A stretch of DNA of 32,000 nucleotides, taken from positions 5,130,001 to 5,162,000 of the forward strand of contig NC_008312.1 of the NCBI RefSeq assembly GCF_000014265.1. The letters run 5' to 3'. The translations under genes were made by a program, and so were the position numbers. The notes beneath the pieces were generated by a model. The model was not told the origin of the DNA and did not search any database. It saw only the letters and a program-made list of their open reading frames with translations. This document shows positions 6,166-27,700 of the stretch, piece by piece; positions within the stretch are counted from its first letter, which is position 1, and each line of letters starts with the position of its first letter. This DNA comes from Trichodesmium erythraeum IMS101. GTDB lineage: Bacteria; Cyanobacteriota; Cyanobacteriia; Cyanobacteriales; Microcoleaceae.

Positions 6166-6211
6166 TTGTTAAGATTTTTTTTTGTTAATAAAATATAGTG
6201 CTACTAGCACT
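6166..6211 (+). promoter_or_regulatory. Candidate sigma70-type promoter (TTGTTA-17 nt-TAAAAT) abutting a perfect palindrome AGTGCTA-N-TAGCACT
   Basis: -35 at 6166-6171, -10 at 6189-6194, palindrome at 6197-6211, about 155 bp upstream of ATG 6368. In AT-rich DNA such hexamers arise easily by chance. Confidence 0.25.
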
Positions 6212-6367
6212 GTACTTGAGTGAAATTCTGAAGTATCATCAATTTCTATGGCAAATATATAACTTCTCTCTTTTCTCAAATTTTATGAAAAGAAAGATGT
6301 TGATAAAGCCTAACCTTAAAGGGTGAGGTATAATTATAGTCAAACACAAAAATAAGGTAGTTGAACA

Positions 6368-6703
6368 ATGCTCAAAATAGCTATTGATGGGTTAGATGCT
6401 GTCCAAGCTACTAAAGAAATTCTAGCCATTGAAGGTATAGAAGGTAGCTATAAAATAGATGGAGATGGCTATGAAAAAGGTGATACTTTAGCAACGATTC
6501 TGACAATAGTTGGAATTGGTTCAGGAACTTCTATCATTATTAATAATACTCTAAGCATTGCAGAGAAGATTTTTCAGTGTTACAAAAAACATGAGAAAAA
6601 ACTAGAGAAGGTCGAAATTGTGTCTGGAGAAAAGCGAGTTGTACTTCAAGGTGCAACTGTAGAACAAATTAAAGATATTTTGGAAAGTTTCGAAGGAAAA
6701 TAA
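6368..6703 (+). CDS. Small (111 aa) hypothetical protein, translationally coupled partner of the CHAT-NTPase-GUN4 gene
   Basis: ATG start preceded by aaggtag. Its stop TAA (6701-6703) lies 2 nt before the next ATG (6706). It has a central hydrophobic stretch LATILTIVGIGSGTSIIINNTL between charged N- and C-terminal parts. I recognise no family. Confidence 0.6.
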   Translation: MLKIAIDGLDAVQATKEILAIEGIEGSYKIDGDGYEKGDTLATILTIVGIGSGTSIIINNTLSIAEKIFQCYKKHEKKLEKVEIVSGEKRVVLQGATVEQIKDILESFEGK

Positions 6704-6705
6704 TT

Positions 6706-9645
6706 ATGCAAATTCTTCACTTAGATTTAAAATTAATAGGGGATAATTATGCTGAAGTCCGATACTTTTGGAATAATCCCAATGATTACCAATCTTATCA
6801 ATTATCTTTGACAGAAACTTCTGATGTCATCAAAAAAATAGATAGTATTTATAATACAAGACTACCAGAAGACTACGCCAAAACTGGTCAAACACTTTAT
6901 AACTGGTTGGATGGAAATAATCGTATTTTTCGACAAGAACTTGATAAATATCAACGGGAAGGAATTGTTTTAGCTATTTCTACTTCAGAAAGATTAGCTC
7001 ATTTACCTTGGGAGTTGCTCCATGATGGTCAAGAATTTTTAGTTCAGCGTAAACCTGCTATTATTCCTGTTCGTTGGGTGACCGATAGTCAACAACTTTC
7101 TTTTCAAAATCAACCTAATAACCGAGCATTAAATGTGGTGTTTATGGCAAGTTCCCCCCGCAACACGGGAGACTATTTTCGTGAACTTGATTTTGAAGCG
7201 GAGGAGGGAAGTATTTTGGAAGCAACCAAAAGATCGCCTTTGTTTTTAGAAGTAGAAGAAAGTGGTTGTTTGACTGAGTTAGGTTATCTGGTGGAAAGCC
7301 AGGAAGAGAATTTTTTCGATGTTGTTCATCTCACAGGTCATGCAACTTTTGAGCATGGCAAACCTTGCTTTATTACTGAGACAGAATATGGGGAAGCAAA
7401 ATATAGCAGTGCGGAAGATATTGCTAAAGAATTACAATTTCAGCACCCGAAACTAATTTTTTTATCGGGTTGTCGGAGTGGATATTCACATCACGAAAAT
7501 GTTCCATCAATGGCAGAATCTTTATTAAGTCAAGGTGCAACAGCAGTTTTAGGATGGGGCGGTTGGGTTTTAGATACAGAAGCAACAAAAGCAGCAGCAA
7601 AGCTATATCAGGGGTTGTCCTTTGGTAAAGGGGTAACGGAAGCATTAGGGGAAACTTACCAGGAATTAATTGAGGTTGAAGCTAGAGATTGGCATAAATT
7701 ACGACTTTATGTAGCGGGTAGTTTACCGGGAGCGTTGGTAACCCCTTTGAGAAAACGAGGTCGGAAACCAGCACCCCGTTACCAGAAAACCATTGAATTT
7801 AGAGACCCAGAAGGTAAACTTAGGGTGGCCACTCGTGAAAATTTTGTTGGTCGTCGTCGTCAGTTACAAAATTGTCTCCGTACTTTTAAGTTAGATTCTG
7901 ATAAGTTGGGAGTGTTAATTCATGGTATGGGAGGTTTGGGAAAAAGTACCATTGCTTCTCGACTTTGGGAGCGTTTATCGGAATATGAAAGGGTTTCATG
8001 GTGGCGACAAATTGATAATTCTAATTTAGTGGAAAAATTGGCAGATAAATTGAAAGATGCTGACCTGCGTTTTGCCTTAAAAGATAATCAAAATGAACTC
8101 AAATATAGGTTGCGAGATTTATTTGAAAATTTAAGTGAAGCTGGAGCAAAACCTTTTCTTTTCCTGTTTGATGACTTTGAATGGAATCTTGAACCTCGTC
8201 AAGGTGGATATGTTTTGAAGCCTAAAGCAGCAGAAGTTTTAAATGCTTTAATTTGGGCAATTCAGGAAGTAGGTGCGAGGGAAAAAATTATTATTACTTC
8301 TCGTTATAAGTTTCAATTTGAGTTATTAAGTGAGTTTTGGGTACAAGGTTTAGAAGCATTTCGCAAAGCTGATTTAGAGAAAAATTTGAAACGTCTGGAG
8401 AATTTTAATTCGGGAAAAATTGATAAACAATTAATTGAAAGAGCGTTAAAACTTGCCAACGGAAATCCTCGTTTATTGGAATGGTTGGATAAAGATGTAC
8501 TTGCTTGTGGGGATATTGACGGGAAGTTAAGTAAACTTGAATCTAGTTCTGAAGATTGGCAGGGGAAAATTATTTGGCCTGAACTTTATGAACAAATTGA
8601 TGAAAAAATGATTCAGGTATTGAGTCATTGTTTGGTGTTTGAAATTCCTGTACCGATGTCAGCTTTAGAGGTAGTTTGTGAGTCTATTTCTGGTTGTAAA
8701 GAACAACTTAAAAGAGGGATTGATTTAAGTTTGATAGAAGTTAGTTCAGAAGTAGAAGAACCTGAGCGTGTTTATCAGGTTTCACGAGTGTTGCCTCCTA
8801 TTATTTCGAGTATTAAATTACCTAAAGCTCCTGAAGCTTATTCTTTCTATGAAAAAGGTTCAGAAAAATTGTTTAAGTTGTGGGGTACAATACCCAATCA
8901 AAACTGGAAAAGATGGCGTGAGATTTTCCGGTTAAAGTTTGCCCATAAAGAAAATCCTGAGCGATTTCGACAGGGGTTGTCTTCAACGTTATCCTTCTAT
9001 TATGATAATCAGGGTGTGCACTATTATAATTTAGCCCATGCTGCTTATTGGTCTGAACTTAAGGAAATCAAAACTGAACTAGAAGAACTGCTACAGGATA
9101 ATAATTTGGAAGAATATTTGCGTCATAATAATTTGGAAGAATATTTGCGTCAAAGTGAATGGAGAAAAGCTGATGAGGAGACACTAGTAATTTTTTATCA
9201 AACAACAGTAATTTTTCCTGAATTAATAAAATTTCAAGGTTCTGATGGTGTAACATCTTTTATTTATGATGATAGGGAGATTCCACGGTTAACACTTGAG
9301 TACATAGACCAACTTTGGGTAAAATATAGCCATGGTAAGTTTGGTTTTTCCGTCCAAAAAAAAATTTATCAGAGTTTGGGTGGAAAAGGAGAGTATGACA
9401 GGGAAGTATACGAAGCATTTGGTAATGAAGTCGGATGGCGTTCAGGAGAAAAACAGTTGTCTTACTCTGAACTAACTTTTAGCTTAGATACGCATTATAC
9501 GGGGCATCTCCCATTTCAGGCATGGAATCATTGGGAAGAGGCTAGTAAATTCGCTGCGGCTATGACAGGGAAGTATCCAGTGAAGTTTACAGTTTACTAC
9601 TATACGAAGCATTTGATTAGGTATCCGAGAAATATGGAGATTTGA
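6706..9645 (+). CDS. Multidomain CHAT (caspase-like protease) - STAND P-loop NTPase - GUN4-like domain protein
   Basis: CHAT module: LAHLPWELLHDG, His in VVHLTGHATF (7327-7341), Cys in LIFLSGCRSG (7471-7473). NTPase module: FVGRRRQL...VLIHGMGGLGKSTIASRLWERL (Walker A 7924-7950), Walker B-like PFLFLFDDFEW, and the helical motif ANGNPRLLEWL. C-terminus: SEWRKADEET...LEYIDQLWVKYSHGKFGFSVQKKIY...FGNEVGWRSG...YTGHLPF, which matches the cyanobacterial GUN4-domain pattern. Confidence 0.85.
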   Translation: MQILHLDLKLIGDNYAEVRYFWNNPNDYQSYQLSLTETSDVIKKIDSIYNTRLPEDYAKTGQTLYNWLDGNNRIFRQELDKYQREGIVLAISTSERLAHLPWELLHDGQEFLVQRKPAIIPVRWVTDSQQLSFQNQPNNRALNVVFMASSPRNTGDYFRELDFEAEEGSILEATKRSPLFLEVEESGCLTELGYLVESQEENFFDVVHLTGHATFEHGKPCFITETEYGEAKYSSAEDIAKELQFQHPKLIFLSGCRSGYSHHENVPSMAESLLSQGATAVLGWGGWVLDTEATKAAAKLYQGLSFGKGVTEALGETYQELIEVEARDWHKLRLYVAGSLPGALVTPLRKRGRKPAPRYQKTIEFRDPEGKLRVATRENFVGRRRQLQNCLRTFKLDSDKLGVLIHGMGGLGKSTIASRLWERLSEYERVSWWRQIDNSNLVEKLADKLKDADLRFALKDNQNELKYRLRDLFENLSEAGAKPFLFLFDDFEWNLEPRQGGYVLKPKAAEVLNALIWAIQEVGAREKIIITSRYKFQFELLSEFWVQGLEAFRKADLEKNLKRLENFNSGKIDKQLIERALKLANGNPRLLEWLDKDVLACGDIDGKLSKLESSSEDWQGKIIWPELYEQIDEKMIQVLSHCLVFEIPVPMSALEVVCESISGCKEQLKRGIDLSLIEVSSEVEEPERVYQVSRVLPPIISSIKLPKAPEAYSFYEKGSEKLFKLWGTIPNQNWKRWREIFRLKFAHKENPERFRQGLSSTLSFYYDNQGVHYYNLAHAAYWSELKEIKTELEELLQDNNLEEYLRHNNLEEYLRQSEWRKADEETLVIFYQTTVIFPELIKFQGSDGVTSFIYDDREIPRLTLEYIDQLWVKYSHGKFGFSVQKKIYQSLGGKGEYDREVYEAFGNEVGWRSGEKQLSYSELTFSLDTHYTGHLPFQAWNHWEEASKFAAAMTGKYPVKFTVYYYTKHLIRYPRNMEI
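9098..9151 (+). repeat. Perfect 27-bp tandem duplication inside the CDS (ataataatttggaagaatatttgcgtc x2)
   Basis: 9098-9124 equals 9125-9151 exactly. It encodes NNLEEYLRH/NNLEEYLRQ in frame, just upstream of the GUN4-like domain. Confidence 0.95.
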
Positions 9646-10080: not shown

Positions 10081-12144
10081 TTATTCCACCACTTTTTTTT
10101 CCTGCTCATTCAAACTAACTTTGACATCCTCATCAGACTCTTCCGAAGCTTTTGTCAACTCAAAAATTGGCGGTTCTAAATCAGGAATAGGTACTTCAAA
10201 CCCTGGGGGTAAAGGAGGCAGTTGTGGCAGACCAGAACCATTATCTTTAGTCTGCTTCAGCAACTCATTAATACTAACCTCTGGTACAGGCGGTACTTCC
10301 GTAACCTTCAATGCTGCCATCAAATTCCCCAAAGCAAACTCAATATGACTATCTGGATCTTTCGTCACCCATCCATCCTGTGTTAACTGTCGCATTTCAA
10401 AATGTAAATGGGGACCCGTAGACATTCCCGTACTACCAACCCTGCCAATAACCTCACCCTGTTGTACAAACTCCCCTGGCTGCACAAAAATTTCTGATAA
10501 GTGACCATAGAGAGTTTCCAATGATTTTCTCTGGTGGTCTAACACAACAGCTACACCATAACCACCTAACCAGTCAGCGATCGCTACCTTTCCTGCATAA
10601 GTTGCCACTACTGGAGTACCAGTTGGTGCCCCTAAGTCTGTTCCAGTATGAAACTTTCTATAACCTAAAACTGGATGTTCTCTCCACCCAAATAATGAAG
10701 TAATAGGTGCTGGAACAGATAGAGGAAATATTAACCGAGTATTACCATTTCCAGGTACTGCCGGAGGTCGCATGGTGCGTTTGTAATAAGCTAAACCTGA
10801 CTGAGATATGGGGTTATGAAAAAGTCCCTGCACCTGAGCCGGTAATACTGCTGCCACCTCCACTCCTCTTGAAGAGTCTGAGTAGTTTGGAGCATAAGAG
10901 GTGCTGGAGTAATAACCATTTTGACCGGAGGATGAGTTTGAATAGTAACTTGTTTGACTATAACTAGAAGTATCTGAATAATAACTATTATCCTTGGAAG
11001 AGTAATAGCTATTATCATTGGAAGAATAATAACTATTATCGTTGGAGGAGTAATTTTGCCGACCTTCCCCATACAATGAATTATAAGATGAAGTTTGAGC
11101 AGGAGCACTCCAATTATTTGTTGCAGTAGTTCCACTCCAATTATTGTTCTGAGTAGGGGCGCTCCAATTATTATTATTTTCAGCTACAGCACTCCAATTT
11201 TTATTATTATTTTCGGCTACAGCACTCCAATTTTTATTATTTGTTGGATATTGAGCAACTTCACCTGTAGAACGCTCTGAGAAAACTACTGTACTTGGTG
11301 CCTCATAACTATCAGTTGCACCCACTTTATAATCTGTCTCATCTATATAAGCATTAGTCGAACCATTATAATAATAAAGCTTCTCAGGTTTTGGTAGTGT
11401 TAGAGGTGGTAAGTTATTTTTAGATTTTTTTGATAGGTTGATATTAGTATTAGTCGGAGGTGCTACATATAAATTTTTGGGTAGATAGATAGTACTGTCT
11501 GGTTCCGGTTCTGGTTCCGGTTCATAAATTGGTGCTGGCTGGGAATAGTAATAAGGTTCCGGTTCATAAGTTGGTGCTGGTTGAGAATAATATGGTTCCG
11601 GTGAATAATATGGCTCTGGTTCGTAGTAGGGTTGAGAATAATATGGTTCTGGTTCGTAATAACTTGGTGCTGGTGAAGAATAATATGGTTCTGGTGAATA
11701 AGATGGTGCTGGTGAATAATATGGTGCTGGTTCGTAGTAGGGTTGAGAATAATATGGTGCTGGTGAATAGGATGGTGCTGGTGAATAATATGGCTCTGGT
11801 GAATAAGATGGTGCTGGCGAATAATATGGCTCTGGTGAATAAGATGGTGCTGGCGAATAATATGGCTCTGGTGAATAAGATGGTGCTGAATAAGATGTTT
11901 GGGGTACTGGGGCGGGTTGATATGATGGGTCATAGTCATATACTTCTATTTCCAAAACCACCTCCCCTAAAACCATACCTCTACTCAGCATCCCTAAACT
12001 AGCTAGACAACAACCTAGCTGCATAAGTGATTTGCGAGGGAAGAGTTTGGTGATTTTCAAATTTTGCTTTTGGTTCGGCCCTTGAGTTATTTCCTGTATT
12101 TCAGCTTTAGACTCAATTGATTGATTTTGATTTTCTGGTGACAT
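10081..12144 (-). CDS. M23 (LytM-type) peptidoglycan metalloendopeptidase with an N-terminal membrane anchor and long low-complexity repeat linkers
   Basis: C-terminal domain FGWREHPVLGYRKFHTGTDLGAPTGTPV...LYGHLSEI...GSTGMSTGPHLHFEMR carries the HxxxD and HxH zinc motifs. The N-terminal hydrophobic segment is LMQLGCCLASLGMLSRGMVLGEVVL. There are PAPSYSPEPYYS-type repeats and NNNWSA / SNDNSYYS repeats. Confidence 0.9.
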   Translation of the reverse strand: MSPENQNQSIESKAEIQEITQGPNQKQNLKITKLFPRKSLMQLGCCLASLGMLSRGMVLGEVVLEIEVYDYDPSYQPAPVPQTSYSAPSYSPEPYYSPAPSYSPEPYYSPAPSYSPEPYYSPAPSYSPAPYYSQPYYEPAPYYSPAPSYSPEPYYSSPAPSYYEPEPYYSQPYYEPEPYYSPEPYYSQPAPTYEPEPYYYSQPAPIYEPEPEPEPDSTIYLPKNLYVAPPTNTNINLSKKSKNNLPPLTLPKPEKLYYYNGSTNAYIDETDYKVGATDSYEAPSTVVFSERSTGEVAQYPTNNKNWSAVAENNNKNWSAVAENNNNWSAPTQNNNWSGTTATNNWSAPAQTSSYNSLYGEGRQNYSSNDNSYYSSNDNSYYSSKDNSYYSDTSSYSQTSYYSNSSSGQNGYYSSTSYAPNYSDSSRGVEVAAVLPAQVQGLFHNPISQSGLAYYKRTMRPPAVPGNGNTRLIFPLSVPAPITSLFGWREHPVLGYRKFHTGTDLGAPTGTPVVATYAGKVAIADWLGGYGVAVVLDHQRKSLETLYGHLSEIFVQPGEFVQQGEVIGRVGSTGMSTGPHLHFEMRQLTQDGWVTKDPDSHIEFALGNLMAALKVTEVPPVPEVSINELLKQTKDNGSGLPQLPPLPPGFEVPIPDLEPPIFELTKASEESDEDVKVSLNEQEKKVVE
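11500..11940 (-). repeat. Coding tandem repeats (Pro/Tyr/Ser-rich, roughly 36-nt periodicity) within the M23 gene
   Basis: Reiterated tggtgctggtgaataa(g/t)atgg... units on the + strand give (S)PEPYYSPAPSY repeats. They also create spurious ORFs in other frames on both strands. Confidence 0.85.
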
Positions 12145-16011: not shown

Positions 16012-17667
16012 TTATGATTTATTAATTTTCAAGAAAGAAAATTGCTGAGTAGGTTCTAAACTAACCCCACTGATGTTTTTCTGAGCAAATACATAATCTT
16101 TATCTAACCATAATGGGATAAAAGGAACATCTTCTGCTAATAATTCTTGAATTTCTACAAAAATAGCTAGCCGCTTTTCTGGGTTTTGCTCTTGACGTTG
16201 TTGTTGGATTAATTTATTTATCCGATCACTATAATAAAATGAACCTTGAAATTGACTAGCCCCTTCTTCACAACCTTTTTCTTTTGAACCTTTGATACAT
16301 TCTAAAAATGGTTGGATATAATTATCCGCATCAAGAAAGTCTCCATACCAGTCTAAAATAAATGTTTGATATACTCCTTTATCTAAATTATTAAAAGCAG
16401 TAGCTGCTTCTACGCTATTCAATTCTAACTCCATTAAACCTTCTAAATTTTGATCTACATATGCTTTTAATGTACTAGCTGTTAATTGCCTCTTAGTAGA
16501 ATTTGCAGCATACCAAATTTCAATTTTGGCTGGGCTATTTCGAGAATATCCTGCCTCTTTTAATAACTCCTTAGCTTGAGCAAAATTTCCATCTCCATAG
16601 TTTTCTTTAAACACTGGTTTATAGCTATTAATTTGTTTAGGAATTAGACTATAAACTGGTTCAGCTTTTCCTTGTAAAACTCGTTCATTTAGTAATTTTC
16701 TATCAATAATAGATGCTAAAGCTTGTCTAACAGCTTTGTTATTTAATGGTTCTAAATTGAGATTTAAAACCATATAATTAACTGTCTTACCATCTGTAGA
16801 AATTACTTGCCATCCTTGACGGATAGCTTCAGCTTCTAAATTAGTAATTTGGTCAGTGTCTAGAGAAAAATAAGCTACATCAATAGACCCTGTTTTAAAA
16901 GCATTAAATAGGTTAGCTGAACTAGAAAATATTTGAATGTCAATTCCTTGATTTTTTGGTTTTTCTCCCCAATAATTTTCAAATACATCTAAGCGTAAAG
17001 TATCAGTACCATACTCAGCTAATTTATAGGGACCAGTACCAATAAATGTATCAGGTTTAAATTGACTTTCACCTATTTCATAAGCTTGTGGGGAAACAGC
17101 ACACAGACCAGAAAATGTTAATAAAGAAGTAAAAGCTGCAAAGGGTTTTTTCAACTTAATTGTTAATTGGTATTCTCCCGTAGCTTCTACTGATTTAATA
17201 GTATTAGTTAACAAAGAAGAAGGTGGGCCACTATTTTTAATAAAACGTTTGAAAGAAAAGGCCATTGCTTCAGCGTTGAAAGGAGTACCGTCATGGAATG
17301 TCACCCCTTGACGAATGGGAATAGTATATGTTGTGCCATCTTCACTAATTTTTGGCATTTCTGTTGCTAGTGATGGTACAAGTTCCATTGTTCCTAGCTT
17401 ATAACCGTAGAGGCGATCGCCTAAGTTATGGAGTAAGTTACCAGATATTACTTCGTAGGCATCTGCCGGGTCGATAGTCCGAGGTTTTAAAGTTGTGCCT
17501 ATAGTAATGCGATTTGTATTTGTTTCTATAGTTAGAGTATTGTCGGGGTTATTTTGAGGTTGGCTACAACTAATGACCAGGAAACAGCAAAGACAAAATA
17601 AGCCAAAAAATTGAATTATTGACTGCCAGGAATGGTTGATTGAATTAAATGATTTATGTTTTTCCAT
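16012..17667 (-). CDS. ABC transporter substrate-binding lipoprotein, family 5 (peptide/nickel/opine type)
   Basis: 551 aa. Signal peptide with a lipobox (LVISCSQ), and family-5 solute-binding-protein style sequence throughout (ITIGTT...DPA.AY...; GTGPYKL.EY). No permease or ATPase genes are adjacent. Confidence 0.9.
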   Translation of the reverse strand: MEKHKSFNSINHSWQSIIQFFGLFCLCCFLVISCSQPQNNPDNTLTIETNTNRITIGTTLKPRTIDPADAYEVISGNLLHNLGDRLYGYKLGTMELVPSLATEMPKISEDGTTYTIPIRQGVTFHDGTPFNAEAMAFSFKRFIKNSGPPSSLLTNTIKSVEATGEYQLTIKLKKPFAAFTSLLTFSGLCAVSPQAYEIGESQFKPDTFIGTGPYKLAEYGTDTLRLDVFENYWGEKPKNQGIDIQIFSSSANLFNAFKTGSIDVAYFSLDTDQITNLEAEAIRQGWQVISTDGKTVNYMVLNLNLEPLNNKAVRQALASIIDRKLLNERVLQGKAEPVYSLIPKQINSYKPVFKENYGDGNFAQAKELLKEAGYSRNSPAKIEIWYAANSTKRQLTASTLKAYVDQNLEGLMELELNSVEAATAFNNLDKGVYQTFILDWYGDFLDADNYIQPFLECIKGSKEKGCEEGASQFQGSFYYSDRINKLIQQQRQEQNPEKRLAIFVEIQELLAEDVPFIPLWLDKDYVFAQKNISGVSLEPTQQFSFLKINKS

Positions 17668-18156
17668 AAAGGCTATTTACCTCTTATTGCTCCTCTATAA
17701 AACTAATACAAAAAAATTTAATACCAAAAAATTGCATGAAGTAAAAATCTAATGTTTACTTCCTTTTTCTACTTAGAATGTCGGGAGTTAGTCATCTACA
17801 GTTATTGTCCACCTGTATTCAGTAAGGTTAATACTTGCATTTTATACTTGTTGTATAGAAACATTATAGGTATCTTTTCTAAACTAAATAAGTTAGTATT
17901 TTGACTAATTAATTGCCATCTTATTATCAAAATAATAACTATTTATACGAATAATAATTATTGTAATAAACAGGATTTTTTTAGGATAATTTATTAGGTA
18001 AAATCTATAAATTTAGTTCTATATAATAAGCTTAAATATCTAAAATATTGTCATTCTTGGATTAAGTTAATCTTTGGGGTAATATCTGAAATAATATAGT
18101 TTGAATATCATGCGCAGTTAAATATTTAAACTCTGGAGGATGTTGTCGCTTATTCT

Positions 18157-18381
18157 GAAGGGAATAAAATATAAGAAAGGGGAAAGTTTTTTGGTTTTAT
18201 TTTCCCTTATGGATATCAAATACAACATATCACCCGTAAGGGGAATATTACCCGGAAATAACATTACATCAAGGATAAAAGATAAGAAAGGAGAAAGTCT
18301 TTTTTACTTTGCTTTCCCTGAAGGATATAAAATACGAAATTTGACCTGTAAGCCGAATATTACTCGGGCATAATATTACAT
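18157..18381 (-). repeat. Two tandem ~112-nt direct repeats, each with a hairpin plus U-tract on the minus strand (candidate multicopy sRNA units)
   Basis: Unit A is 18157-18269 and unit B is 18270-18381, with about 75% identity and small indels. Minus-strand hairpins are AAGGGAAAAUAAAACCAAAAAACUUUCCCCUU (A) and AGGGAAAGCAAAGUAAAAAAGACUUUCUCCU (B). They are followed by UCUUAUAUUUUAUU and UCUUAUCUUUUAUCC respectively. Confidence 0.8.
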
Positions 18382-18723
18382 ATTAAAAGTTACAAAATTC
18401 AGGTGAGTAAGGAAGTATAGAATAGATTAAAAGTATCGAATAAGCTTTAAAAATTTATTGTCAGCTCATGAAAAAAAATTATCTAATCAAGAAAAAAAAG
18501 TCATCAAAAAAATTAACTAATTATCATTTGTTAATTTCTGACTAACTTTTATTAGCTTTTCTACACTGAATTTTGTCTCACTCATATCAAACACCCTATG
18601 TTTAATCTATGGCTAATAGCTGAATGCTTACAAGTTAAGAATTATCACAGACCCTAGATGATTGTAAAGATTACTGTTTAGAATTCCACCTAATATAGTT
18701 TTTTTTCTTGACTCTCAAAATCT

Positions 18724-19209
18724 ATGTCTAGTTATAAAAATATCAACAAAAATTTGAGCATGGAAGAAGTTTATACTTGTCCTGTTTGCTATCATGGTCA
18801 AATTTCAGCAATGACTTTGATGGATGCTTTCTCTTGTAACTTTTGTAACCATATTTTTACTGCCGATCTGGTAAAACAATCATTAAAAATAGCAGATGCT
18901 TCTTCTCCTTTAAGCTGGAAATGGAATGGTAAAAAATGGAAGGCTGACCATCCTCAAGTAGAATGGAGTTGGGTAATTCAGTTATTAGCAGTTGGATTTA
19001 TATTATTACCAACTACATTAATAGGATTAAGCGTTTACTTTTTTCCTCCAACACCAGGCACTCCTTTATGTTGGCTACCCATTTTTTGGATAGGTTTAAC
19101 TTTTCTATCTCATTTAGCTATTATTGTTAATATTCTAATTGATTATTACCAGTTTCCAGTCAAGTTATACTTCAAAGCACTGGGGCGAAATTTATATTTT
19201 CGGGCTTAA
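18724..19209 (+). CDS. Zinc-ribbon membrane protein, hypothetical
   Basis: CPVCYHGQ...CNFCNHIF (a CxxC...CxxC ribbon) is followed by two or three hydrophobic helices. ATG start. Confidence 0.6.
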   Translation: MSSYKNINKNLSMEEVYTCPVCYHGQISAMTLMDAFSCNFCNHIFTADLVKQSLKIADASSPLSWKWNGKKWKADHPQVEWSWVIQLLAVGFILLPTTLIGLSVYFFPPTPGTPLCWLPIFWIGLTFLSHLAIIVNILIDYYQFPVKLYFKALGRNLYFRA

Positions 19210-20908
19210 TACCAAATTCTTAAATATAAGAACCTTATATTAATGAGGTACAGTATTTTTTCTTCTTCCGTATTTCCTTTCCCCAGATCCGGTGCTCTCC
19301 AAAATCAAAAACTTGTTGTTCTCAACATTAGTTATTCGCGATAATTGCCATATAAATTTTAAGGTTTGATTTCAGATTTTCTATTGCTCATTAATCATAG
19401 TTAATGTAGCAGTAGAAAACATCCAATTTTTTTGATTTTAAATAATGCATATTAACTAGTAATTCAATTTCATTGAGAGAAAATAAATTCCCTTTTATCT
19501 ATATAATTAGCTAATTTTTATAAATTATATTCTAGTACTCAAAAAAAGAATGTACTTAACACAGAAGTCAGTAATTTAAGAAAAGGAAAAGTCGTAATTG
19601 ATCCGGTGTTTAAACCACCTAATAGATACAAACAATCCTGATAGCATATAGAGAACCTCACAGTATTTTTATCTGAATATTGATTGAAAAAAATATCATA
19701 AAAATTATGTCTGCTTTGCATAAAGGCAAAGAAAAAATACTATAATGAAAGGGGGAGTCAATATTTTTCAATATCATGGATAAAAGTAAATTTTGGTAAA
19801 CATAAACTATTGTTAAATCAAAATATTCCTTAAATAAACTAGGTATAATAAATGTATACTTTAGTTTTCTATGAAAAATAGATAAATAATCAGAATTGTT
19901 TTGAAGAAGAATGATATTTTTCACTAAATTATCATCTCCTCAAAAAGTTTCAAAAGTATATAGGCAGAGGATGGCAATTAAAGCAATGTTTCAAGACTAG
20001 AAAACTTGTAATTCTCCTCTATAAGCAGCAAAAGCAAAGAAAAAAAATTGAATAATTTGATGCAAATTTATAGCTATCTTATACAGAATTAATGTATTGA
20101 TAGTATAAAAAAACAAAAATTACCGAATTAAATAATATATATCAATAACGGATACAAAAGAGGCTGCTACTAGTATTGAATTACATAAATTAATATACTT
20201 ATTTATCTAGTAAAAAAAAGCTTGAAGCGAAGAAAATCTAGGCAAAGTATTTAGGAATAGAAAATTTAAATATAGCAAAGTTTTTCATAATTAGTATGAG
20301 AGAGCAAACCCTAGACTAATTTCTATAATCATCAAAAAAACTAAGTTTTAAGTTGTATCTAAATCCTCTAAATATTAATTAGGGCTAGCTGAATAAATAT
20401 AGAACCCTAATAATGTGTCAGTTTAAGTAGTCTTAAACCTTGAGAAAAGTGCTAAAAAATTATGAAATTATATTCTCTAATTTAGAATTTTCCCTGATCT
20501 GGTGGGAAAAGCGTAGAAACATTAACATGCTCCAAAATTTATAACTGCTCAAGCTCAGTTAGGGATGACTTTTGAAGCCATTAGTTTTTCCCTGGCGGGG
20601 TAAGCAGGGGGTTTACTTTTAATTAGCCCATAGTACTCTACCCTGTTAAACCTGACCTACTTTATCATTCCCTAGCTTATGACAAAGGAATTTAACCTCA
20701 TTATAAGTTTTGAGTTATTAGCCCTGATGACTATTTAATCTTGTGAGAATGAGAGATGTCAGACATGTTACTTAATGACTTCTTTGGCTTTAAGAACTAC
20801 CCTCAAGAAACTCTAATTACAATTCGATAACTCTTGAAGAAAAACTAATCTAACTATATCTAACTAATAGTAATAGGTAAAAATGTAAATAATCAAAGGA
20901 TATGAACT

Positions 20909-21526
20909 ATGAAATATAATTATAAAAACTATCGGCTAGATGCAGACAGGAAGCTTTATCAGAAATCACCTCATCCTTTTTTATTAGCATTAATATTAAC
21001 TGGAATTTTAGCTGCTGAAGCATATCCTAATCTTACTGAAACAGCAATTGCTGCTGTTAAGGTTTTTCAGTATCCTCAACTAGAAACAAAAGGGAAAATT
21101 ATTTCCAAAGCTAATAATTCTTCTAATCTTTTTAACTCTGTAACACAAACTAAATCTGATGCTAATACAGAAATATTTCAACCTTTTTCCTTGACTAGTA
21201 TTAATGATGCGAAAAAGTTCAATGAACCTCGAAGTGAAGAACTAGAAAAAATAGCTAATCAAAGTAAAAAAATACCTAATGATATAGTTGAAGTTGTTCG
21301 TCAAGATTTAGCTAGTAAAATAGGTATTGCACCTGAAAAAATCAAAGTTATTGGGGTTACTCAAGAGACTTGGCCAAATACTTGTTTGGGTTTACCAAAA
21401 AATGATGAACTTTGTGGCCAAATGTTAGTAGAAGGTTGGCGTCTTATTTTGTCTCATGACAAAGGTAAATGGATTTACCGTACAGACAATTTAGGTAGAC
21501 TAATGAGAGTAGAATTGAAGAAATAA
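20909..21526 (+). CDS. Hypothetical protein with N-terminal membrane anchor or signal
   Basis: 205-aa ORF. Hydrophobic segment PFLLALILTGILAAEA. The C-terminal ~80 aa (VTQETWPNTCLGLPKNDELCGQMLVEGWRLIL...WIYRTD) look globular with a Cys pair. I recognise no family. Confidence 0.55.
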   Translation: MKYNYKNYRLDADRKLYQKSPHPFLLALILTGILAAEAYPNLTETAIAAVKVFQYPQLETKGKIISKANNSSNLFNSVTQTKSDANTEIFQPFSLTSINDAKKFNEPRSEELEKIANQSKKIPNDIVEVVRQDLASKIGIAPEKIKVIGVTQETWPNTCLGLPKNDELCGQMLVEGWRLILSHDKGKWIYRTDNLGRLMRVELKK

Positions 21527-22431: not shown

Positions 22432-23325
22432 TTAATTTGACTTAATTAAACTTTTTAACTCCCGCCAGATAGAGGGCTGACTAGAAATTGATGGGGGATG
22501 AGTGAAAATTCCCTGAGTGGGGCTGAACAAAAAAGCTAGTATAAATAACCCAAATGATACTAATACAATTGCTGGACCAGATGGCAAGTTATAGAAATAG
22601 CTAATATACATCCCACTAATACTAGATAAAGTTCCTATTCCTACTCCTAATATGATTACTTGGTGAAGTCTTTTGACTAATAGATAAGCTGTAGATGCTG
22701 GTGTGATTAATAAGGATAAAACTAATACTACTCCTACTGCTTTAAGACTTGCTACAATTGTTAAACCAATTAACATCATTAGCCCTAGGTTTAATAAGTT
22801 TACAGGTAAACCTACTGCTTGAGCGCCGAGGGGATCAAATGTATAAAATAATAGTTCTTTATAAAGTAAGATTACAACTAATAAAACAATTATACCAATA
22901 ATTAGTGTATCGCGGACGTCTCCAACGGTTACGCCTAGAATATTACCGAATAAAAAATGATTGAGGTCGATTTTATTGTCTTTCTGAATAATTGTCATTA
23001 GTGTTATTCCTAAAGCAAAGAAGGCTGAAAAAACTATGCCCATTGCTGCGTCTTCTTTGATTGACGATCGCGTTCTAATTAGATTGATTAAAATTGTGCT
23101 AATTATGCCGGCTATAAATGCCCCGATAAATATATTTGCTCCAACCCAAAAAGCAATGGCTAATCCTGGTAGTACTGAGTGACTAATTGCATCTCCTAGT
23201 AGAGCTAATCTTTGTACCATTAAATAACTGCCTACTACTGCACAAATAATTCCAACTATTATTGCTACTAGGAGCGATCGCTGCATAAAACTATATTGTA
23301 ATGGTTCAACTAATTTTTCTAACAT
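22432..23325 (-). CDS. Metal (Mn/Zn) ABC transporter permease, ABC-3 family (MntB/ZnuB-like)
   Basis: 297 aa and strongly hydrophobic, with typical ABC-3 blocks: LLGDAISHSVLPGLAIAF, EDAAMGIVFSAFFALG, FDPLGAQAVGLPV, LITPASTAYLL. Confidence 0.9.
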   Translation of the reverse strand: MLEKLVEPLQYSFMQRSLLVAIIVGIICAVVGSYLMVQRLALLGDAISHSVLPGLAIAFWVGANIFIGAFIAGIISTILINLIRTRSSIKEDAAMGIVFSAFFALGITLMTIIQKDNKIDLNHFLFGNILGVTVGDVRDTLIIGIIVLLVVILLYKELLFYTFDPLGAQAVGLPVNLLNLGLMMLIGLTIVASLKAVGVVLVLSLLITPASTAYLLVKRLHQVIILGVGIGTLSSISGMYISYFYNLPSGPAIVLVSFGLFILAFLFSPTQGIFTHPPSISSQPSIWRELKSLIKSN

Positions 23326-24225
23326 TGGTGCTTGTTTCCTCTTTTTTGTGTTTTTGATTATTTTGATTTTATCGCAAAAAAAAATAATTTTTAATTTCAG
23401 AATATTTTAGATGATTAATTCAATATTGATAGGTATTTTTCTATATTTTTAAATTAAATATATATAGAATAATCTGCTTATTTAATTAAGTTTAATTAAC
23501 TGTAAAATTTGTTGTTTATTTATTTCCTCTGAAACTAAAATTATTAGAGTTTTGGTGATGTTTACTTATCAAAGTATTTCGGCAGCAAGTTAATAATAAA
23601 TATGATTATAATCCCAGTTTTATTATTGTTAATAATATTAATATACACTAGAAAAATATAAACTGAATCTACATTATCTTAAGTTAGATTAATTACTTCA
23701 TAATAATCATTATATTGTTCAGGATATATTACGATTGTGACATCCATTTGAACATTAGTTAATCTATTGGATTATTAGCAGGTTTATGAGTTCTATATTT
23801 CTATACTATTTTCTGAATAATCTCAAGATGGTTGTGTAACTTAAAAATTTAACTATTCTCTAATTTTTTACATCAAAACTGATTATATTTAGTTGTATTT
23901 TATTAATAATTAATGAGCTTAATCTATTTGAAAAAGATATTTTTATAAGTTTGCTCACTAATGGCAGGGTTAAGTAAATATTTTGGTTATGGTTCTGATA
24001 ATACACTTGGATATTTTTCATGTTGCCTCACTGCAATTTGTAAGTTGTTGATGGGAGAAATACTAATAAAAATTTTGATGTAGATGACAATTTTTGTGTT
24101 TTTTGGCAGCGATCGCTATATTTAGCACAGGATATATAGTGTATTTCCGTAAGGCCTGTCCATTAAGTTATGGGCCTATTTTTTTGTGGCTTTTATTGTG
24201 GCTCTATGCTGTCAGAAAATAAAAA

Positions 24226-24250
24226 AGACATAACTAAAACAGTTATGTCT
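24226..24250 (-). terminator. Orphan intrinsic terminator (perfect 10-bp stem AGACATAACT/AGTTATGTCT, loop of 5)
   Basis: On the minus-strand RNA the hairpin is followed by UUUUUUAUUUU (the + strand a-run at 24215-24225). No minus-strand ORF lies upstream of it. Confidence 0.5.
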
Positions 24251-24767
24251 CCAAAAAATTGTTTGTTTAGATTGAATTAGCTTGGTTTTAGCTAATTTTT
24301 ACTTAAAAATGGACTAAGATGGGCCATCTTTTCCTAAAATTCGAGACATAATTGTATCAATTAAGTACACTTTAATTTTGTTCAACCCCTTGCGTTTATA
24401 AGAAAGTTCAGGCAATAATACGTTTATAGAAAAGTTGAGGCAATAACAAAACTTACGCAAAGACTCTAATTGTCATGTAAATATTTAAATAAATTACCAA
24501 AAATAGACTATATATTGTGCTCTTGTGTAGGTCTTGAAAAAAAGACTACAAAAAACTAAGTGATCACAAAAAGTTTCAATAGCCTCAGTGCGGATATACT
24601 GCGCACCAGGATGGGAATGGCACTCGTAATATGAGTTTACGGGCTTTACAGCTCATATGCGATCGCCTTAACTGGTGATGCTGTACTGATTCAAGGTGTA
24701 TAGCTTTGAGTCGGTTAAATGTTGCACAACAAAAACCAAAAACAACAAGTTTTCTAAATAAAGAACT

Positions 24768-27700
24768 ATGATGACAACACCGAGCTCGAGGAGAGTTCAG
24801 AACTCTAGGAATAATCCTCCAGTAGCTGATAAGAACAAAATCACAGTATACGAAAATAGCACAGACACACCTTTAGGAATCACAGCTCCCACGGACCCTG
24901 ATGGAGATCCCCTAACTATTCGAGTCATCGGATTACCAAGATTAGGAACAGTAACTAAAGCTGACGGTACAGAAGTTAAAAGACGTGACAAATTAACATC
25001 AGAGGAATTAGTGGGGTTAGAGTATGATGCCCCTAACAATTACAACGGTAAAGGTAACGCTGGAGGTTTTTTCTACTTTGTTAATGACGGTACATCCAAC
25101 AGGTTAGGTAGCACACGTATAACTATTAATCCTTTACCTGAAGATTTCAAACCAGGGGAAGTCATTGTTAAACTTAAAGATGTCGATAATAAAACATCTT
25201 CTAAGAAGATTGAATCTTTCCGTGATAATCTAGATATTGAAGTAATTTCGACAATTGAAGGGATCGGCGTTGAGTTGTGGAAGTTACCAAATTCTACTAA
25301 TGTACAAGAGTTTGTTGAAGAATATAGTAGCCGTCCGGAGTTTGATATTCAGCCGAATTTTACAAATACTAAGTTGTTTACTCCTAATCATCCTGATGAT
25401 CCAGATTATAATGTTCTAGAGGGTTCTTCTCCTCCTGGGCTAGGACGTCTTTGGGGACTCAACAATAAAGGACAAACTGGGGGAACAGATGATGCAGATA
25501 TTAATGCACCAGAAGCTTGGGGTTTTACAACAACTCCAGTAGTATCTCCTACAGTTAATTCTACTGTTCGTGTAGCTGTTATTGACACAGGTGTTGACGT
25601 AAATCACCCAGATTTAACAGGTAACTTAAATTTAGATTTGGCGGCTAATACAATATTTGGCGATGATCCTGAGGATGTGACAGACAACCACGGTCACGGT
25701 ACTCATGTTGCTGGAATCATTGGTGCTGTAGGAAATAATCAGACAGGAGTAGTCGGAGTCAATTGGGATGTTGAAATCGTGCCGATAAAAGCCTTTGATG
25801 ATATTGATGGCGATGGTGTTCCAGAGGCAACTGATATGGCTATTTTAGAGGCAATTAACTATGCGATTAACGTTGCCAAAGTAGATATAATCAATGCTAG
25901 TTGGGGCAAGCTACCTGATAATGATAATGATGATAATGATGATATAGCGGAACTTTGGAAGAATGTCATAGATAATGATACTGATGACGAAAGCCAACCA
26001 CCACCGTCACCGCCACCACTATTCGTCGCAGCAGCTGGTAATCAAGGGGTTGATATTGATGATCCGGAAAATGCTGTTTACCCTGCGAGCATTGACTCAC
26101 AAAACATTATTTCTGTAGCTGCAACAGACCATGACGATAACCTTTCCTCATTTTCCAACTTTGGAGCATCCGTTGATTTAGCTGCTCCCGGCGGTAGCGA
26201 TATACCAGGTAATGGTCCTGGAAGTTCTACTGATCCTCGTAATATTTATAGTACGTTGCCAAATAATGATTATGGATACAGTGCAGGTACTTCCGCCGCC
26301 GCAGCTTATGTGAGTGGAGCAGCAGCTTTAATGCTGGGGACAAGAAGAGCCAGGAATGAGAAAACCGGTCAGCCTGATTTGAGTACTCTTCAATTGGAAG
26401 AGAAACTTCGAAATGCAATCACTCCTATTAATGGTTTGCCAACAGCCACAGGTGGTCGCCTTAATTTGTATAATGGAATTGATCAGGAAGGTATTGGTTG
26501 GGGTGACGTACACTTTACCACTTTTGACGGTCGTAAATATGACCTTCAATCCTTTGGCGACTTTATTATGGCCGAAACAGCGCGGAATGATGATGACTGG
26601 GTAGTTCAAACTCGTCAACAACCTTGGGCAAAGAATAGTTCAGTTGCTGTTAATACAGCTTTTGCTACCCGAGTTGATGGTAAAACGGTAGTTTTTAACC
26701 AGAAGTTTCCTAACAACAGACTCCAAGTTGGTGGAGTTGATTTTCCCTTGGCTAGCGGTGAGACTAAAAACATTGGGGACAGCAAAATCGAACGTGATGG
26801 CAACAAATACACAATTACCTATGCAGGAAATGATGGTATTATTGATGTTGATGATGCTAAGTTAACAGCTTTTGATAACGGCGATCATATCAATATTCAT
26901 ATATCTGACTTTGCTACAATGCAAGGGCTGTTAGGAAATAATGATGGTAACCCTAACAATGATTTTGCTTTAAGTGATGATACTCAAAAGTCTAACAATG
27001 TAACCGCAAAAACAATACACCAAGAGCATGGTGAGTATTGGCGGGTACCGAGTGAAGACAAAGAACAAAAGGGGGATAGAAAATCTTTGTTTGAAGACTC
27101 AGCCGAGGTTATAGGCATTCCTAAAAGATTTTTAACGCTGGATGGTTTCCCTAAAAATGACGTGGCAGCAGTCAATGCAAAGGTAAAAAAAGCAGGAATT
27201 ACTGACAAAGACAGAGCAGATGCAGTTGCTTTCGACCTTCTTGCAACTGAAGATGAAACTTTTCTGACTAGTGCTGTAGAGTTTTTTAAGTCTGTAGACG
27301 AAGCAAATAATCCTGACGTTCAAGCACCTGTCCAGTTTGACTTCAATGCTGATGGAGTAGCAGACATTCTCTGGCGTGAGGAAAAAGGGCGTCGTGCGCG
27401 TAGTGATATTTGGTTTATGAATGATGATGGTACACTTAATAAAAGTACTCCACTCGTAAATTATTATTCAAGGTGGGATGTAGCAGGAGTAGGAGACTTC
27501 AATGCTGATGGAGTAGCAGACATTCTCTGGCGCCACAAAAAATACGGCTTTAACTATATTTGGTTGATGAATGATGAAGGCACATTTAATAGCCGTCTTC
27601 ACATCAAGCGTCTTAGTTCAAGCTGGAATGTAGAAGGAGTAGCAGACTTCAATGGTGATGGAGTAGAAGACATTTTCTGGCGTAATAAATCTCAAAACCA

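Follow-up and report, generated by a model that had tools for sequence, protein, structure and literature searches.

The stretch of DNA analysed here, called the window throughout, covers 32,000 nucleotides (nt) of Trichodesmium erythraeum IMS101 (NC_008312.1, positions 5,130,001 to 5,162,000), and our subject is a cassette of two + strand genes in it which, in the list of open reading frames (ORFs), encode a protein of 111 amino acids (aa; 6368..6703) and a protein of 979 aa (6706..9645). The TAA of the small gene occupies 6701-6703 and the ATG of the large gene lies at 6706, and this gap of only 2 nt suggests that the translation of the two genes is likely to be coupled. Upstream there are 280 nt of non-coding DNA, the preceding ORF ending at 6087, and the downstream neighbour (10081..12144, - strand) is convergent. 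This layout agrees exactly with that given in a first-pass annotation made from the letters of the window alone, in which the pair was taken for a self-contained unit consisting of a small protein and a sensor-switch-effector protein. That these are chance ORFs was ruled out by massive conservation.

The large protein consists of a CHAT domain, a STAND NTPase, and a GUN4-like domain. Pfam matches above the curated cut-offs were obtained for CHAT (residues 59-328, 2.4e-23), AAA_16 (379-494, 6.2e-11), NB-ARC (2.4e-6), and GUN4 (805-944, 4.8e-25), and nSTAND5 (1.1e-4), nSTAND6, and nSTAND3 were matched weakly. The dyad, Walker, and helical-module motifs quoted in the first-pass annotation were all found at the expected residues, namely VVHLTGHATF at 206-215, LIFLSGCRSG at 250-259, GMGGLGKST at 407-415, FLFLFDDFE at 484-492, and GNPRLLEWL at 586-594. 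When 18 homologues with 52-78% identity were aligned, H208, H212, C256, G407-S414 of Walker A, and D489/D490 of Walker B were invariant, and hence the His/Cys dyad context is intact as had been claimed. In the AlphaFold2 (AF2) model, which is of moderate quality (predicted local distance difference test score, pLDDT, of 69.6), H212 and C256 each follow directly upon a core beta-strand, a placement that would be expected of the dyad of a caspase-hemoglobinase fold. Foldseek matched the N-terminal part of this model to SAVED-CHAT (8tl0, 1.6e-7), Craspase TPR-CHAT/Csx29, separase, and caspase-9, and the central part to CED-4, the plant NLRs WRR4A and RPP1, and MalT. The proposed CHAT-STAND-GUN4 architecture is thus upheld by significant profile matches and by the structural matches that agree with them. 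PDB sequence searches with the large protein reached no CHAT structure, NCBIfam gave weak partial matches only, and the Pfam scan recognised no effector domain in it besides CHAT. A PADLOC scan, which had been suggested as a check, matched PD-T4-6 through the GUN4 part only and no other model, and this includes the Avs models. The features of the cassette are collected in Table 1.

Table 1. Genes, domains, and candidate signals of the cassette, in positions of the window
Feature	Position	Strand	Basis
TATAAT hexamer, perfect; candidate -10	6329..6334	+	34 nt 5' of ATG 6368; AT-rich DNA
AAGG, putative Shine-Dalgarno-like	6354..6357	+	10 nt 5' of ATG 6368
Small gene, 111 aa; EACC1-like but divergent; predicted to be a latent pore-former and the substrate of the protease	6368..6703	+	ORF, hhalign, AF2
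Residues 1-31, beta-alpha-beta unit, predicted autoinhibitory	6368..6460	+	AF2; aligns with KrEACC1 N-fragment
Residues 32-39 (GDGYEKGD), exposed linker, predicted CHAT cleavage region	6461..6484	+	low pLDDT, hhalign
Residues 40-63, hydrophobic, Gly/small patch (TLATILTIVGIGSG...), predicted membrane-inserting/oligomerising	6485..6556	+	conservation, hydropathy
Residues 64-111, helix + beta-hairpin + helix, C-terminal part of predicted toxic fragment	6557..6700	+	AF2, hhalign
Large gene, 979 aa; CHAT + STAND NTPase + GUN4-like	6706..9645	+	ORF, Pfam, Foldseek
CHAT domain (caspase/hemoglobinase fold), residues 59-328	6880..7689	+	Pfam E 2.4e-23
His212 codon, predicted catalytic (HLTGH)	7339..7341	+	invariant; after strand 206-210
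Cys256 codon, predicted catalytic (FLSGC)	7471..7473	+	invariant; after strand 250-254
STAND P-loop NTPase core, residues 379-495	7840..8190	+	AAA_16, NB-ARC, nSTAND5; Foldseek
Walker A	7924..7950	+	invariant GxGGxGKS
Walker B	8155..8181	+	invariant DD
Helical/winged-helix arm and helical spacer, residues 496-804	8191..9117	+	mostly helical in model
GUN4-like domain, paralogue type by sequence, residues 805-944	9118..9537	+	Pfam GUN4 4.8e-25

Conservation of the gene pair

For the large protein 1510 homologues with the same domain set were found, and in species-representative genomes there are 216 loci with a gene for a relative of it, the closest (87%) being in a Trichodesmium metagenome-assembled genome (MAG). 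With the small protein, an exhaustive profile search gave 203 clusters, counted as representatives at 50% identity. Outside cyanobacteria the family is essentially absent, and the small-protein homologues are all cyanobacterial and unannotated. The neighbourhood census was made on the best 80 of the 216 loci. In 65 of these the large gene is intact and sufficient sequence is available 5' of it, and a small-family ORF was present upstream on the same strand in 57 of the 65, with a gap of 12 nt or less in 28. The two genes are therefore co-conserved, as the first-pass annotation would have it. Small-protein homologues of about 50% identity are again found 2-9 nt 5' of a CHAT/AAA_16/GUN4 protein of 943-968 aa. 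Sister proteins of a second type match the large protein only up to about residue 745 and then continue into TPR arrays, and the small gene lies upstream of 30 of the 34 GUN4-type and 27 of the 31 TPR-type genes. Because the pairing is kept in both types, the small protein together with the CHAT-NTPase is the constant core of the cassette, and it is the C-terminus, GUN4 or TPR, that varies.

The pair recurs in a Nostocales chromosome, in a Leptolyngbya plasmid, and in metagenome contigs of the Joint Genome Institute (JGI), where the flanks are unrelated to one another and rich in toxin-antitoxin, prophage-like, and plasmid genes (genes for T5orf172, DdrB, and restriction-modification subunits; RelB-ParE; BrnT/PemK/PIN clusters). 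In three of the JGI loci (L005, L006, and L008) a dense toxin-antitoxin cluster with BrnT, PemK, and DUF433/PIN-like genes is located downstream of the cassette, and in Leptolyngbya (L002) RelB-ParE precedes it and a nearby gene has only a faint Pfam match to an RdRP family. These flanks look like defence or addiction islands.

The small protein and its relation to EACC1

A small gene placed directly before the gene of a caspase-fold protease is the arrangement of the EACC1-caspase two-gene conflict system, which was predicted as 'System 4' by Kaur, Burroughs, Iyer & Aravind (2020, PMC7159879). EACC1, the 'effector-associated constant component', is encoded there by the small 5' gene and its partner has an N-terminal caspase-superfamily peptidase and a variable C-terminus. 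EACC1 was described as a single transmembrane (TM)-like helix with a central patch of small residues and Gly and with short alpha+beta extensions; such systems were reported to be common among actinobacteria but only occasional among proteobacteria, and in the accessible part of that paper GUN4-caspase fusions are noted only generally (PMC7159879). It has been shown by Evans et al. (bioRxiv 10.1101/2025.11.14.688446) that in KrAvs12 of Ktedonobacter racemifer a caspase-like protease is joined to a STAND ATPase, and that this protein, once activated by the tail-connector protein of a phage, cuts KrEACC1 at or near Asp49 into pieces of 5.7 and 7.1 kDa. The C-terminal fragment alone was toxic, the N-terminal fragment was non-toxic and autoinhibitory, cleaved EACC1 permeabilised liposomes, and toxicity was abolished by the C152A mutation or by deletion of EACC1 (bioRxiv 10.1101/2025.11.14.688446). 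By our calculation a cut after D49 of KrEACC1 gives 5.7 and 7.2 kDa and falls directly before the hydrophobic segment WGTILEIVLGS. Neither CHAT nor GUN4 is mentioned by Evans et al. (bioRxiv 10.1101/2025.11.14.688446), and in the literature no description of a CHAT-STAND-GUN4 protein with a small partner was found.

The small protein of the window has nothing significant in Pfam, NCBIfam, and PADLOC scans. Its AF2 model (pLDDT 84, predicted template modelling score 0.73) has a strand at residues 2-8, a helix at 11-19, a strand at 24-31, a linker at about 32-40 where pLDDT is about 58, a buried strand at 41-50, and, in a C-terminal part with pLDDT above 89, a helix at 58-74, strands at 79-86 and 89-92, and a helix at 98-109. 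In this model the beta-alpha-beta N-unit packs onto the C-terminal strands and the linker is floppy, which is as EACC1 is described. Within the Gly patch (TLATILTIVGIGSG) G49 and G53 are conserved, and the Kyte-Doolittle maximum over 19 residues is 1.84 as against 1.71 for KrEACC1. The best conservation in the linker is that of [RK] at position 37, which is found in 74 of 77 representatives, followed by [ED] at 38 in 51 of the 77; this pair lies 3-4 residues before the hydrophobic segment and is placed by hhalign on the invariant Q48-D49 of EACC1. A cut at K37-G38-D39 of the window protein would yield, as calculated, an acidic N-fragment of 4.1 kDa and a C-fragment of 7.9 kDa beginning at TLATILTIVGIGSG, and in size, hydropathy peak, and fragment geometry the protein is comparable with KrEACC1. 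A 7-residue insertion, TSIIINN (residues 54-60, 6527-6547), lies inside the hydrophobic segment in the Trichodesmium/Okeania subclade and is absent from about 75 of the 77 representatives.

The only family that members of the small-protein family match recurrently is PF19953, the Pfam model of EACC1. Among the top 120 homologues listed none carries a precomputed PF19953 annotation, and word-indexed searches for homologues gave no bridge to EACC1, all the proteins found being cyanobacterial and unannotated. The comparison was made between profiles. The EACC1 reference was KrEACC1 (WP_007905045.1, from the supplement of Evans et al.), which scores 28.2 bits on PF19953. A tblastn search of plasmids with KrEACC1 gave a single homologue, from Streptomyces, which when used as the query finds only itself. 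Eight metagenomic EACC1 ORFs were added through a hand-designed DNA pattern for QDxGTILxIxLG, a motif that is absent from the cyanobacterial family; a scan of the metagenomes with a pattern derived automatically from the 2-sequence alignment had found nothing. Six of these eight ORFs match PF19953, most of them with only about 20 bits, and six of the eight, though clear relatives of KrEACC1, are below threshold. Even clear relatives of EACC1 are thus poorly captured by the Pfam model, most of them reaching no more than about 20 bits. When the resulting EACC1 profile of 10 independent sequences (KrEACC1, the Streptomyces plasmid protein, and the eight metagenomic ones) was compared by hhalign with the cyanobacterial family profile A3, P was 3.4e-6 and the probability 87.8%, with 91 collinear columns that span nearly the full length of both. 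The score was 38.1, compared to 15.0 for the reversed alignment, 10.8+/-2.0 (maximum 18.7) for 100 column shuffles, and 13.8+/-2.7 (maximum 27.2) for 100 shuffles of twelve-column blocks. As the EACC1 profile was deepened from 1 to 2 and to 10 sequences P fell from 9.8e-4 to 5.9e-5 and to 3.4e-6. Judged by these profiles the small protein is best taken as a distant EACC1 homologue that is outside the reach of the curated model.

If the resemblance were instead convergent, as between any small alpha/beta protein with a hydrophobic helix and another, the small protein would represent a new class of substrates or partners of CHAT that has no relation to EACC1. This would agree with the lack of a Pfam EACC1 match in the window protein, with a hhalign probability below 90%, with the result for the narrow-family profile A1 (P 5.8e-4 over 53 columns), with the difference between the protease families, and with a Foldseek search of the PDB in which the small-protein model met only generic ferredoxin-like folds. 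However, the 91-column collinear alignment scores at least 9 standard deviations above shuffles that preserve composition and blocks, the statistic becomes better with each addition of independent EACC1 sequences, genuine KrEACC1 relatives score on the Pfam model in the same range of about 20 bits as the cyanobacterial members do, and both kinds of small protein have the same size, the same place in the gene order, and a partner that begins with a caspase-fold protease. We consider convergence very unlikely.

In several respects the cassette is built like the EACC1 system. In both, a small (about 110 aa) 5' gene directly precedes a gene for a caspase-fold protease with a STAND NTPase and a variable sensor, and a constant unit is combined with a varying C-terminus. 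Both small proteins have an alpha/beta N-unit and an exposed linker with a polar/acidic pair, and these are followed in both by a Gly-rich hydrophobic segment, W and basic residues, and a beta-hairpin-helix. The cassette differs from the CHARACTERISED system in that its protease is a CHAT domain, and from KrEACC1-KrAvs12 in that its small protein has diverged too far to be recognised by the Pfam EACC1 model and its sensor position is GUN4-like; moreover, EACC1 systems were named in 2020 in actinobacteria and some proteobacteria (PMC7159879), whereas the clade described here is cyanobacterial. The first-pass annotation had stated that no characterised system has this organisation, and this still holds for the exact combination of CHAT and GUN4. 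As a kind, however, the pair belongs to the EACC1 two-gene system, which had been named and characterised already (Kaur et al. 2020, PMC7159879; Evans et al. 2025).

Some relatives depart from the usual pairing. On the linear plasmid p1 (482 kb) of Streptomyces sp. W1SF4 (L089, 5956-7638) a canonical EACC1, annotated as 'hypothetical protein', lies directly 5' of a 'caspase family protein' which is a Peptidase_C14 of 441 aa without an NTPase, and this is a minimal EACC1-caspase pair. In a Scytonema locus (L031, 3683-6835) an EAD1 adaptor domain (PF19955, 1.2e-23) is fused N-terminally to the large protein, and in one from an uncultured cyanobacterium (L033, 3182-6829) there is an extra N-terminal Peptidase_C14; upstream of neither is there a small-family ORF. 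These two fusions point to alternative ways of effector recruitment, and an EAD1 fusion without the small ORF is as expected in an EACC1 effector-recruiting network. At another locus (L011) the small gene is only a remnant. Two proteins of 1427-1463 aa (P0087 and P0090) combine CHAT, NTPase, and GUN4 with a TraG/VirD4/FtsK-like ATPase (PF10412, PF02534, PF12696, PF01935) and resemble the EccC/FtsK-type fusions that have been reported for EACC1 modules.

A proposed protease-gated death module

We think it fairly likely that the cassette is a two-gene, protease-gated cell-death module of the abortive-infection type and of the EACC1-caspase kind. A probable course of events is that a trigger, most likely phage infection, binds the C-terminal GUN4-like domain, possibly together with the helical arm, and that this, along with nucleotide binding, causes the STAND NTPase to oligomerise. 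Oligomerisation would bring the N-terminal CHAT domains together and activate them by proximity, with His212 and Cys256 as the catalytic residues. The active CHAT domain would then cut the co-translated 111-aa protein in the exposed linker at about residues 32-39, beside the conserved basic-acidic pair, and in this way would remove an acidic autoinhibitory N-terminal unit of about 4 kDa. The freed C-fragment of about 8 kDa, starting with the Gly-rich hydrophobic segment, may oligomerise and permeabilise the membrane, upon which the cell would be killed or arrested. Because EACC1 is a latent pore-forming effector that is released by its protease, the terminal effector is probably the small protein and not CHAT. 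In the first-pass annotation the effector had been CHAT. Of the three roles that had been offered for the small partner, substrate, inhibitor, or adaptor, that of substrate gives the best reading.

A number of observations weigh against this interpretation. The data on cleavage, toxic fragment, and pore come from KrEACC1 and KrAvs12 only, and what speaks for these steps here is homology, linker geometry, and fragment sizes; the protease-substrate relationship itself is carried over from KrAvs12 by analogy and synteny, and when the family profile was compared with the N-terminus of KrAvs12 by hhalign only Walker A was aligned and no CHAT-protease similarity was seen. PF19953 does not match the small protein of the window even at E<=10 and is reached by family members only below threshold (1 of 30 close members and 7 of 77 diverse ones, 3.4e-4 to 0.01), and the homology to EACC1 is seen between profiles only, at a probability of 87.8% and not above 95%. 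The window protein has its acidic residue one position off from that of the conserved [RK][ED] pair (K37-G38-D39). PD-T4-6, through the GUN4 part only, is the sole PADLOC model matched, and in T. erythraeum the cassette stands among housekeeping genes and outside any defence island.

Inhibitor and adaptor survive in a rival explanation, in which the small protein, anchored in the membrane, would serve CHAT as a sensor, adaptor, or inhibitor and the protease would act on itself or on other cellular substrates. It was proposed in 2020 that the TM segment of EACC1 is a membrane-associated sensor that activates the caspase (PMC7159879), and related CHAT proteases do take substrates that form no pores, as in Csx29-Csx30, separase-cohesin, and SAVED-CHAT-PCaspase (literature cited in bioRxiv 10.1101/2025.11.14.688446). 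The small gene is also absent at five intact loci (L029, L056, L069, L071, and L076), where the large protein may work alone. On the other hand, genuine EACC1 is cleaved, its C-fragment alone is toxic and lyses liposomes, and its deletion abolishes toxicity (bioRxiv 10.1101/2025.11.14.688446); the AF2 model of the window protein is a compact soluble alpha/beta fold in which the hydrophobic segment is a buried strand and not a constitutive TM anchor; and the Pfam scan offers no other effector domain in the large protein. This explanation appears unlikely to us, and cleavage of the small protein by CHAT is preferred.

With other systems the cassette has parts of its logic in common. It shares the effector-STAND-sensor order with Avs/NLR-like STAND ATPases (e.g. 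Avs2/Avs4-protease with MBL or Pepco partners), as well as the protease-gated release of a neighbouring latent toxin that is proposed here and the fold likeness to CED-4 and plant NLRs, but no PADLOC Avs model matches it and its sensor is GUN4-like where the sister proteins have a TPR-like array. The CHAT proteases of Craspase (Csx29-Csx30), SAVED-CHAT-PCaspase, and gasdermin-protease operons have the CHAT fold in common with it (Foldseek 1e-7 to 1e-5), and in those systems too a sensor-activated protease cuts a specific partner and unleashes a downstream response. Pore formation by gasdermin, like that by EACC1, follows upon the removal of an autoinhibitory piece (bioRxiv 10.1101/2025.11.14.688446). 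The input to Craspase and SAVED-CHAT is Cas7-11 with CRISPR RNA or SAVED with cyclic nucleotides, whereas the cassette has a fused STAND NTPase, and their substrates, and those of the gasdermin operons, are a sigma-factor regulator, a second caspase, and gasdermin, whereas the predicted substrate here is the 111-aa EACC1-like protein. A substrate of the gasdermin or Csx30 type was ruled out for the small protein, which has no Pfam match to either. No cas genes were seen among the scanned neighbouring ORFs, which are housekeeping; CRISPR arrays were not specifically searched.

The kind of system, EACC1 with a protease, was predicted in 2020 and characterised in 2025 and its logic is no longer surprising. 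What is new here is a divergent EACC1, a CHAT domain in place of a caspase domain of KrAvs12 type, a GUN4-like sensor, and a large cyanobacterial clade. A testable function can thereby be assigned to a large unannotated cyanobacterial family (about 200 small-protein clusters and 216 large-protein loci), the prediction being that the small 'hypothetical protein' is a latent toxin that forms pores and that the CHAT-STAND protein is the protease that licenses it, and the EACC1 module would be extended beyond the Pfam model and the distribution named in 2020, to CHAT and to cyanobacteria that include the bloom-former Trichodesmium.

The GUN4-like domain and the genomic setting

The interchange of GUN4-like domain and TPR arrays in the sensor slot leads to the question what a domain derived from the chlorophyll pathway recognises in an immune or cell-death receptor. 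Solved GUN4 structures in the PDB were matched at 9e-14 with a profile, and the core signature DxLW, GxFGFSVQ, VGW, and GHLP, which is common to GUN4 (the porphyrin- and bilin-binding Mg-chelatase cofactor) and the cassette domain, is present; the alignment to the solved structures stops at GHLP. It has been reported that the Asn of an LxNxLR motif is essential for bilin binding and that the motif is kept in GUN4 orthologues and lost in cyanobacterial paralogues (PMC10156173). LxNxLR was not found in the GUN4 region of any of the 18 aligned family members, the window sequence being GHLPFQAWNHWEE, and in this the cassette domain differs from the orthologues and is like the paralogue clade. Also, GUN4 is a standalone protein of about 230 aa that acts with ChlH, whereas here the domain forms the C-terminal part of a protease-NTPase of 979 aa, and among the annotated neighbours of the cassette there is no Mg-chelatase gene and no link to ChlH. 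The orthologous role of GUN4 in chlorophyll synthesis was ruled out by the wrong motif and architecture. From its sequence the domain appears to be of the paralogue type, and because it is located where the sister proteins carry TPR arrays it would occupy the sensor position of the STAND protein.

A GUN4-like module is also present in a validated defence protein, PD-T4-6, a Ser/Thr-kinase protein of E. coli that defends against T4, since the C-terminal third of its PADLOC profile (PDLC04062, positions 303-441 of 450) matches the domain with an E of 1.7e-24. PD-T4-6 has an N-terminal Ser/Thr kinase whereas the cassette protein has none (no kinase match in Pfam), and in the literature no mechanism was found for the GUN4-like part of PD-T4-6.

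The same protease-gated death module could have a physiological trigger if a tetrapyrrole, be it porphyrin, Mg-porphyrin, or bilin, is the ligand of the GUN4-like domain, and pigment or photo-oxidative stress would then be coupled to programmed death in filamentous cyanobacteria that form colonies or blooms, Trichodesmium among them. In Trichodesmium, programmed cell death of a caspase-like kind is documented under iron or light stress. The domain is a clear homologue of GUN4 by both the Pfam match (4.8e-25) and the PDB structures (9e-14), and the family is essentially cyanobacterial and occupies here a stable chromosomal site among housekeeping genes. Kaur et al. propose that GUN4 fusions, to caspases, kinases, TIR, and others, sense the intracellular tetrapyrrole status (PMC7159879), and EACC1 modules that are fused to DnaK-like domains may answer general stress (bioRxiv 10.1101/2025.11.14.688446). 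Against this, LxNxLR is kept in 0 of the 18 members, as is typical of non-functional GUN4 paralogues, with the qualification that the motif concerns bilin and not porphyrin; GUN4 is replaced in the sister proteins by TPR arrays, the usual protein-recognising STAND sensors; the GUN4-like region falls within the profile of an anti-phage protein of E. coli; and elsewhere the cassette is found on plasmids and beside toxin-antitoxin or prophage-like genes. A tetrapyrrole sensor is thus possible but, because LxNxLR is absent, unsupported, and we rate the physiological trigger as rather unlikely and prefer phage infection. Should the ligand be a tetrapyrrole or a cyanophage product, either pigment metabolism or phage infection would be linked to cell death in marine nitrogen fixers.

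A more far-reaching version, which we regard as quite improbable, is that the GUN4-like domain is a genuine small-molecule sensor and that the STAND-CHAT-EACC1 unit is a suicide switch that reads the tetrapyrrole/bilin state. Inputs could be, for example, porphyrin that accumulates during photo-oxidative or iron stress, or a heme and bilin metabolism rewired by a heme oxygenase and bilin reductases of a cyanophage. If this is true, it would provide a molecular basis for the caspase-like programmed death and bloom collapse that have long been observed in Trichodesmium and other cyanobacteria, and it would be the first bacterial death pathway that is NLR-like, forms pores, and is gated by a metabolite.

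The gene order of the window, oxidoreductase, cassette, M23 peptidase, is the same in the Trichodesmium MAG, and a Dapis locus has the upstream oxidoreductase gene in common with it. The neighbours of the cassette among the scanned and annotated ORFs of the window are housekeeping genes, and its GC content (0.365) is close to that of the window (0.339). From this synteny, the housekeeping neighbours, and the window-like GC content it follows that in the Trichodesmium clade the cassette is a stably inherited chromosomal locus. The promoter scan found no -35 to match the TATAAT hexamer, and in DNA this rich in AT promoter and terminator scans were uninformative. A perfect palindrome with 7-bp arms, AGTGCTA-C-TAGCACT (6197-6211), lies between the oxidoreductase gene and the cassette and could be the terminator hairpin of the upstream gene or an operator.

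The convergent gene at 10081-12144 (-) encodes an M23 peptidase of 687 aa (Pfam 9.2e-32), the N-terminus of which consists of about 300 aa of low complexity that are rich in Pro, Tyr, and Ser (YYSPAPSYSPEP...) together with repeats rich in Asn, Ser, and Tyr. Farther on, at 24768-28232 (+), there is a protein of 1154 aa with a fervidolysin-like prodomain, an S8 subtilase, VWD, and FG-GAP repeats, which is probably a large secreted or surface protease. The window, which has 34% GC and is 87-95% identical to the Trichodesmium MAG, is of low coding density, and stretches of 1-2 kb free of ORFs of at least 90 aa were found at 1-1960, 17667-18724, 19209-20909, and 23325-24768. Long non-coding regions of this sort are typical of the genus Trichodesmium.

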